Positions 22,138-23,992 of a stretch of DNA of 64,000 nt are shown one piece after another. Each line of letters opens with the position of its first letter. The stretch's first letter is position 1. Both the position numbers and the translations under genes were made by a program. The DNA comes from Escherichia coli (GTDB lineage Bacteria > Pseudomonadota > Gammaproteobacteria > Enterobacterales > Enterobacteriaceae), in NCBI RefSeq assembly GCF_051903065.1, contig NZ_CP178439.1; one strand, 5' to 3'. The notes under the pieces are model-generated. The model made no database searches and had not been told where the DNA came from. It saw nothing but the letters and a program-made list of their open reading frames with translations.

Positions 22138-22842
22138 ATGGCTGAACTATTAAAATCTGAAAGTCCTGTTTCACAATCATTGCAGGATATCACTGAAGCT
22201 TTAAAAATCGTTGTCGATGATGGAAGTAAAGCTGCAAAACTGGTTTGTCTTAATGAAAGAAACGAATTAGTTCCCTTGCTCACACAAAATAGTTTTGTTC
22301 CAGATTTCCGTGTTCGCCATGAGGGTCTCAATCCTTTTAACTATCTTATTGATGGGCTGGAAAGGTTTTCGCATCACAGCGAATCTAGTAACTCACTGGA
22401 ATCGACTGATGTATCTCACCAATACGATGAAATTAGCCGGTTAAATGTTCACCATGCACTTCATGCTTCTGGTTTAGTTCCTCAGGATGTTCACCTCTTT
22501 GTTACTTTACCTCTTAGCCAGTTCTATACTGCTTTAGGGGAAACGAATATTGAAAATATTCAGAGAAAAAAAGATAACCTGATGAAACCAGTTGAGCGTT
22601 ATCTTGACGGTAAACGCTATTCTTTCAACGTTTTGTCTGTGACTGTTTTCCCTGAATCTTTACCAGCTGTGACCCGGGCAGATGAAATTGAGGATATTGC
22701 TTCATTTGAATCAAGTTTGGTAATTGATCTTGGTGGTACTACTCTTGATGTTGCAAGTATTACTGGGCAATTAGAACAGATTTCGAAAGTAAAAGGGAAG
22801 GTGCGAATAAGCAGGTCATTTCTTCCCAAGCTGACTCGCTGA
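22138..22842 (+). pseudogene. parM: Actin-like partition ATPase ParM/StbA, 3'-truncated by IS5
   Basis: IVVDDGSKAAKL, HHALHASGLVPQDVHLFVTLPL, NIENIQRKK and IDLGGTTLDVASITGQL align with R1 ParM as I remember it; the reading frame runs into the IS5 end near 22796; no ParR-like gene follows. Confidence 0.7.
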
Positions 22843-23992
22843 TTAAAATTTCGCGGATCTGGGCCGATTTTTTTCCCGCAAACACATCGAATCAGCCTAT
22901 TTAGGCTATTTTTTCCACCATTTCTGGCGTTATTTCCGGTTTTTACTGAGATCTCTCCCACTGACGTATCATTTGGTCCACCCGAAACAGGTTGGCCAGG
23001 GTGAATAACATCGCCAGTTGGTTATCGTTTTTCAGCAGCCCTTTGTATCTGGCTTTCACGAAGCCGAACTGCCGCTTGATGATGCGAAACGGGTGCTCCA
23101 CCCTGGCACGGATGCTGGCTTTCATGTATTCGATGTTGATGGCCGTTTTGTTCTTGCGCGGATGCTGCTTCAAGGTTTTTACCTTGCCGGGACGCTCGGC
23201 GATCAGCCAGTCCACATCCACCTCGGCCAGCTCCTCGCGCTGTGGCGCTCCTTGGTAGCCGGCATCGGCTGAGACAAATTGCTCCTCTCCATGAAGCAGA
23301 TTACCCAGCTGATTGAGGTCATGCTCGTTGGCCGCGGTGGTGACCAGGCTGTGGGTCAGGCCACTCTTGGCATCGACACCAATGTGGGCCTTCATGCCAA
23401 AGTGCCACTGATTGCCTTTCTTGGTCTGATGCATCTCCGGATCGCGTTGCTGCTCTTTGTTCTTGGTAGAGCTGGGTGCCTCAATGATGGTGGCATCCAC
23501 CAAAGTGCCTTGGGTCATCATGACGCCTGCTTCGGCCAGCCAGCGATTGATGGTCTTGAACAATTGACGGGCCAGTTGATGCTGCTCGAGCAGGTGGCGG
23601 AAATTCATGATGGTGGTGCGATCCGGCAGGGCGCTATCCAGGGATAATCGGGCAAACAGGCGCATGGAGGCGATTTCGTACAGGGCATCTTCCATGGCAC
23701 CGTCGCTCAGGTTGTACCAATGCTGCATGCAGTGAATACGCAGCATGGTCTCCAGCGGATAGGGCCGTCGGCCATTGCCCGCCTTGGGATAAAACGGCTC
23801 GATGACAGCGGTCATATTCTGCCATGGCAGAATCTGCTCCATGCGGGAGAGGAAAATCTCTTTTCGGGTCTGACGGCGCTTAGTGCTGAATTCACTATCG
23901 GCGAAGGTGAGTTGATGGCTCATGATGTCCCTCTGGGATGCGCTCCGGATGAATATGATGATCTCATATCAGGAACTTGTTCGCACCTTCCC
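22796..23992 (-). mobile_element. IS5 insertion sequence
   Basis: Terminal inverted repeats GGAAGGTGCGAATAAG at 22796 and CTTGTTCGCACCTTCC ending at 23992; IS5 transposase inside. Confidence 0.9.
22943..23923 (-). CDS. insH: IS5 transposase
   Basis: 326-aa [35 protein letters not shown] matches the IS5 transposase as I remember it. Confidence 0.9.

Follow-up and report, generated by a model that had tools for sequence, protein, structure and literature searches.

The type II (ParM/ParR) partition module of the IncHI2 resistance plasmid analysed here was very probably eliminated by a deletion that extends from one end of a resident ISKpn26 element. The DNA under study is a 64-kb stretch of plasmid backbone (hereafter the window), in which an actin-like partition gene, parM, runs into the terminal inverted repeat of an insertion sequence (IS). 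Comparison with related plasmids indicates that ISKpn26 was not inserted into parM: it already lay downstream of the module, and a deletion then extended from its left end into parM codon 220. A preliminary description of this DNA, made from its letters alone, had parM truncated by the IS; the truncation stands, but it is best attributed to a deletion from an IS already located between parR and htdA and not to an insertion.

The window was compared by local BLAST with the corresponding loci of pAPEC-O1-R (NC_009838.1; locus L001) and pSTM6-275 (locus L002), which both keep a 345-aa ParM and parR, and the three sequences represent three states of one site. In pSTM6-275 the site is empty, with a single CTAA between parR and htdA. 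In pAPEC-O1-R a 1196-bp IS stands between these two genes with CTAA on both sides, and parM and parR are intact. The window carries the same IS with the same right junction and lacks 1230 bp to the left of the IS. Window positions 20222-22796 were identical to L001 1-2575 (100%, 2575 bp), and the right side of the window was identical to L001 3805-11009 (100%, 7205 bp, the complete IS and its right junction among them), giving 100% identity over 9.8 kb around the locus. The sole part of L001 missing from the window is 2575-3804, and this 1230-bp segment, which pAPEC-O1-R retains, holds parM codons 221-345, the 212-aa parR, the hairpin terminator of the operon and the left copy of CTAA. An IS-associated deletion had been suspected in the preliminary description, and the three-state series bears this out. 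The deletion junction reads AAAG/GG (22792-22797), with the IS terminus kept to its first base and an overlap of 1 nt (G), that is, essentially no microhomology, and this speaks for an event at the IS end and against random recombination.

The missing sequences were not found elsewhere. A tblastn search with the C-terminal part of ParM and with ParR returned no match in the 64-kb window (best E-values 1.0-7) and none in NZ_CP093404.1, a complete 215-kb plasmid that carries the same junction and is 99.995-100% identical to the window over its first 45 kb, except for one IS1 copy in the window. The gene that directly follows the element is htdA, in agreement with the earlier observation that neither a ParM C-terminus nor a ParR-like gene lies beyond it.

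The element itself is complete (1196 bp, 22796-23991, - strand) and 100% identical to the copy in pAPEC-O1-R. Its terminal inverted repeats (22796-22811 and 23976-23991; GGAAGGTGCGAATAAG / GGAAGGTGCGAACAAG) match at 15 of 16 positions; GGAAGGTGCGAATAAG begins at 22796, where the parM frame enters the element, and its inverted counterpart CTTGTTCGCACCTTCC ends at 23991. The intact transposase gene (22943-23923, - strand, 326 aa; RefSeq WP_000019445.1) scored 367 bits against the NCBIfam IS5-family model NF033581 (cut-off 140) and is named by RefSeq as 'IS5-like element ISKpn26 family transposase'. The preliminary description had called the element IS5; this holds for the family, and the element is ISKpn26 and not IS5 itself. 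No second ISKpn26 copy was found in the 64-kb window, where the only long repeats form a 249-bp tandem array. Elements of the IS5 type prefer YTAR targets and duplicate 4 bp upon insertion. The IS in the window is flanked by AAAG on the left (22792-22795) and by CTAA on the right (23992-23995), with no target duplication. Such mismatched flanks are accounted for by the deletion, and the same IS copy in pAPEC-O1-R has CTAA on either side; by comparison with pSTM6-275 and pAPEC-O1-R, the CTAA at 23992-23995 is the surviving right-hand copy of the original 4-bp duplication. The left flank and the lack of a clean duplication had been read correctly before, whereas the right flank had been given as TAAG because the IS end was placed one base too far to the right. 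The deletion adjoins the IS end closest to the 3' end of the transposase gene.

The open reading frame (ORF) that enters the element (22138-22842, + strand) encodes a 234-aa fusion, in which ParM residues 1-220 are followed by 14 residues (KVRISRSFLPKLTR) translated from the ISKpn26 end and by a stop codon inside the IS. The parM remnant proper consists of codons 1-219 and the start of codon 220 (22138-22796, + strand) and is identical to the intact IncHI2 parM; base 22796 (G) can be assigned either to parM or to the IS, a 1-nt ambiguity. The equivalent start codon in pAPEC-O1-R and pSTM6-275 opens the 345-aa ParM WP_000818955.1, with which the fusion is identical through residue 220; the point of entry had previously been placed at about residue 220. 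The intact 345-aa protein matched both ParM domains in Pfam (StbA_N, E-value 2e-66; PF21523, E-value 2.8e-60) and aligned with R1 ParM (PDB 1MWK/1MWM) over residues 24-322 (E-value 2.7e-43). The fusion matched StbA_N (PF06406) completely (E-value 6.9e-67) but no more than model positions 1-42 of 159 in PF21523, the ParM C-terminal domain. The protein is cut after Gly220, with about 125 C-terminal residues gone. Phosphate motifs are kept in the window ORF (DDGS, residues 27-30; DLGGTT, residues 197-202), and the adenosine motif VGGGS (approximately residues 303-307 of intact ParM, aligned to IGGGA of R1 ParM) falls in the deleted part. Since roughly three quarters of PF21523 are missing, the window ORF is to be classed, on its sequence, as a ParM remnant and not as a full family member. 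With the C-terminal residues removed, including the GGG adenosine motif, the truncated protein should have lost proper nucleotide binding and polymerisation. RefSeq nevertheless lists the fusion as WP_077249218.1, an ordinary 'ParM domain-containing protein' CDS with no pseudogene label (also at L003 21362-22066). As the fusion is treated there as a normal ParM-domain CDS, counts of partition systems that are drawn from annotation would fall into a trap and record a defunct type II system as one that is present.

In the relatives, the gene lost together with the parM 3' part lies directly downstream of parM and encodes 212 aa. This protein had no match in Pfam, NCBIfam or the PDB, either by sequence or by profile, and its homologues are limited to IncHI-like contexts, one of them (P0017, 38% identity) being named ParR by NCBI. 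When aligned, the homologues were conserved over an N-terminal stretch of about 90 aa and in a C-terminal tail (KANxxLAxLAK) but varied in between, and an AlphaFold2 model built from a 13-sequence alignment gave a strand-helix-helix order but was poor (mean pLDDT 48.6). ParR adaptors consist of an N-terminal ribbon-helix-helix DNA-binding domain, a flexible linker and a conserved C-terminal tail that binds ParM. The layout of the 212-aa protein (conserved N-terminus, variable linker, conserved tail) thus appears to be that expected for a ParR adaptor. The IncHI2 literature also names the pair parM-parR (PMC10076803, PMC5034289, PMC9599605), and by position and naming the identification of the 212-aa gene as the IncHI ParR is well supported, a ParR-like fold being no more than putative.

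The intergenic region upstream of parM (21775-22137, + strand), read directly from the sequence, is retained. It contains a sigma-70-like site (TTGATA-N17-TATAAA, 22068-22096) and, overlapping this site, an imperfect inverted repeat (TAATAGGTCACCATTA / TAATATGGTCCTATTA, 22072-22087 and 22106-22121). By analogy with parC of plasmid R1, 21775-22137 is a candidate parM promoter together with a putative ParR operator or centromere whose ParR is now gone. No R1-like parC iteron array was found upstream of parM, only short imperfect repeats. Similar motifs containing GGTCAC/GGACC occur at 21855-21872 and 24097-24115 and are candidate ParR operator or centromere sites. On the other side of the element, htdA (annotated as H transfer determinant A, or transfer repressor; 24199-24651, + strand) is the gene next to the IS and is intact; 207 bp separate its start from the IS end, and a promoter-like site at 24153-24182 is retained. 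Just inside the left IS end, a terminator-like hairpin followed by a T-run (AGCCTATTTAGGCT, 22894-22907, + strand) could stop transcription coming from the parM promoter.

Neither the window nor NZ_CP093404.1 has an adaptor parR directly downstream of parM, as a complete ParMRC locus would. With the ParR adaptor and the operon terminator gone and ParM cut, we infer that the type II partition system is dead. The intact IncHI2 module resembles R1 ParMRC (actin-like ParM, adaptor ParR and centromere parC) in that its ParM has both Pfam ParM domains and parM is followed by a small adaptor gene. It differs from R1 in that the IncHI adaptor, at 212 aa, has no detectable match to solved ParR structures and in the lack of an R1-like iteron array upstream of parM, and the window differs further in keeping only ParM residues 1-220 and no adaptor gene. 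The closer counterpart is Par2 (parM-parR) of the IncHI plasmids R27 and R478, which lies beside Par1 (parAB) at the same position in the Tra2 transfer region, near parAB and htdA; in the literature both modules are present, whereas in the window the type II module is a remnant.

The distribution of the locus was assessed in PLSDB. By megablast, the parM 5' part and the right flank each matched about 1125 plasmid records, nearly all of them of type IncHI2, and 1051 of 1128 matching records covered at least 80% of a parM-parR query. The parM-IS junction (400 bp at 100% identity) was present in at least 69 plasmids, deposited independently by many laboratories, from Salmonella, E. coli, E. albertii, Enterobacter, Klebsiella and Shigella (stated as at least six genera). 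The IS-htdA (right) junction was present in 95 records and the intact parR-IS (left) junction in 24. CP082622.1, one of the two records beyond these, carries the same IS and right junction with a different, independent deletion of 526 bp, which starts from the same IS end and stops at CTAG, a canonical target for IS5-type elements, inside parR (L008 4859-4866); parM is intact there, and parR is truncated at about codon 105. In NZ_AP025641.1 (L009 2946-4000), IS903B lies in the parR-htdA spacer beside a 3.9-kb deletion that takes parR, parM, the gene for a metallophosphoesterase and part of the genes upstream; the type II module was thereby lost a third time, independently of the other two deletions. 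The parR-htdA spacer (about 400 bp; L001 3605-3804 and equivalents) is a hot spot for IS elements throughout IncHI2: ISKpn26 occupies it in the 95 records above, IS903B occupies it in many Enterobacter-type IncHI2 plasmids in PLSDB, as PMC10076803 also describes, and single cases of ISVsa5, ISApl1, IS1 and ISEc33 in or near parMR were found. No paper on this specific parM-ISKpn26 deletion was found in the literature searched, which is not proof that it is unpublished.

We propose that the deletion arose in two steps. In the first, which the comparison of plasmids shows, ISKpn26 entered the parR-htdA spacer of a pAPEC-O1-R-like ancestor with duplication of CTAA. In the second, whose outcome the comparison likewise shows, the IS end nearest the transposase 3' end was joined to a site 1230 bp away in parM with loss of the intervening DNA, leaving the IS and its right junction untouched; the most likely route would be intramolecular transposition, the classical 'adjacent deletion'. 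Adjacent deletions are classically known for IS1 and IS903. The present case is like them in that the IS and one of its junctions are left as they were, the DNA at the other end is lost together with the target duplication, starting exactly at the IS end, and the endpoints are nested among relatives (1230 bp here; 526 bp in CP082622.1); it differs in that the element belongs to the IS5 family, the new flank, AAAG, departs from the YTAR preference, and the mechanism is read from sequence. A route to an identical product, a hybrid IS with non-matching flanks, would be the insertion of a second ISKpn26 into parM in the same orientation, followed by homologous recombination between the direct copies with loss of one IS and 1230 bp. 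ISKpn26 is abundant on such plasmids (a second copy is present elsewhere on NZ_CP093404.1, for example), and we give this route a minor but appreciable share of the probability. However, its predicted intermediate, in which AAAG and the 3' part of parM would come after the right IS end, was present in none of the PLSDB records when queried with a synthetic junction, AAAG is a non-canonical insertion target, and nested deletions from the same IS end are a classic signature of adjacent deletion, even though repeated events of the two-insertion kind could also produce them. Because of the nested deletions and because no two-IS intermediate was found, a one-step adjacent deletion is tentatively favoured over a second insertion with homologous recombination. 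As a counterpoint, the original CTAA and the CTAG of the second deletion fit YTAR, whereas the AAAG beside the IS at the new junction does not, and as a non-canonical target under either route it may reflect an irregular joining step or a reaction other than standard strand transfer.

Taken alone, the window, with a frame that runs into an inverted repeat, would be read naively as a simple IS5-type insertion into parM whose duplication was lost by sequence drift, with parR elsewhere. This reading has next to no probability and was rejected, as the right flank is the htdA-proximal spacer found in pAPEC-O1-R and contains no parM sequence, and as tblastn found the C-terminal part of ParM and ParR neither in the window nor in the complete junction-bearing plasmid. 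A false parM-IS junction created by collapse or misjoining of the assembly at a repeated IS is scarcely more credible: IS copies are frequent sites of misassembly, but the window has a single ISKpn26 copy, and recurrence of the identical 400-bp junction in at least 69 independently deposited plasmids rules out such an artefact for practical purposes. A further possibility, which we consider quite improbable, is that the 234-aa fusion still works as a short ParM, or that the loss was selected through relief of a cost or through an effect on htdA and transfer regulation by the IS and a derepressed parM promoter. The deletion form (at least 69 records) is commoner than the IS-bearing progenitor with intact parM and parR (24), and the parM promoter region is kept while ParR, the presumed repressor, is gone; however, public sampling is heavily biased, the hairpin inside the IS faces the incoming transcription on the + strand, and htdA has a promoter-like site of its own. 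A natural short form was rejected outright, given the share of records that cover the parM-parR query and the loss of most of the C-terminal domain. IS-anchored deletions have arisen from the parR-htdA spacer at least three times independently, one of them being present in at least 69 plasmids, and this forms the basis for a broader claim that ParMR loss is not neutral but a recurrent, selected or at least well tolerated change in epidemic IncHI2 resistance plasmids, which we also hold to be improbable, if by a slightly smaller degree. If the loss were selected, possible routes would be relief from the cost of a second partition system or changed expression of htdA, the transfer repressor. The deletion is an ordinary IS-mediated event in a well-known plasmid family with many public records, and no new mechanism is involved.

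The gene neighbourhood of the window is that of an IncHI2 plasmid, with parA-parB upstream of parM and with htdA, htdF and rsp downstream. The type I partition pair (16778-19032, + strand) is intact: parA (16778-18031, + strand, 417 aa) and parB (18028-19032, + strand, 334 aa) are full-length ORFs with NCBIfam ParA and ParB matches, their lengths equal those of RefSeq ParA and ParB in the reference plasmids, and the window ParB shares 333 of 334 residues with that of pSTM6-275. No second ParA or ParB was found within the 64-kb window, and with parMR blank by tblastn, parAB is the only intact partition system there, as had been suggested. Segregation of the deletion lineage would then rest on parAB alone. 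This agrees with PMC5034289, in which parAB is among the proposed minimal IncHI2 determinants and parMR is not among them, and with PMC4489591 (citing Lawley and Taylor 2003), where the stability of R27 is ascribed mainly to the type I module and to a minor extent to the type II module; R27 is a related IncHI1 plasmid, and its data are cited here second-hand. Tolerated loss of Par2 is likewise in agreement with this minor role, and the deletion lineage can be regarded as a natural knockout consistent with it, in which large low-copy IncHI2 plasmids would persist and spread on parAB alone. The main use of the finding is as a lineage marker and an annotation caveat, the biology being ordinary: the unique parM-ISKpn26 junction is a clean marker of a multidrug-resistance sub-lineage of IncHI2 derived from the pAPEC-O1-R type.

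Two further features of the window were recorded. The tandem array mentioned above comprises about 3.5 kb of 249-bp repeats (12900-16370, about 13 copies, 76-86% matches) between a TraC-family gene and parA; this region contains no ORF of at least 100 aa, RefSeq annotates no CDS there in relatives, and the repeats are possibly a centromere or incompatibility region for parAB. The IS1 copy that is absent from NZ_CP093404.1 (768 bp, 4924-5691) is flanked by an 8-9-bp target duplication (CAAAAAGG) and splits htdO, whose product is listed as plasmid transfer protein HtdO, near codon 35, and this insertion could impair conjugation of the window plasmid.
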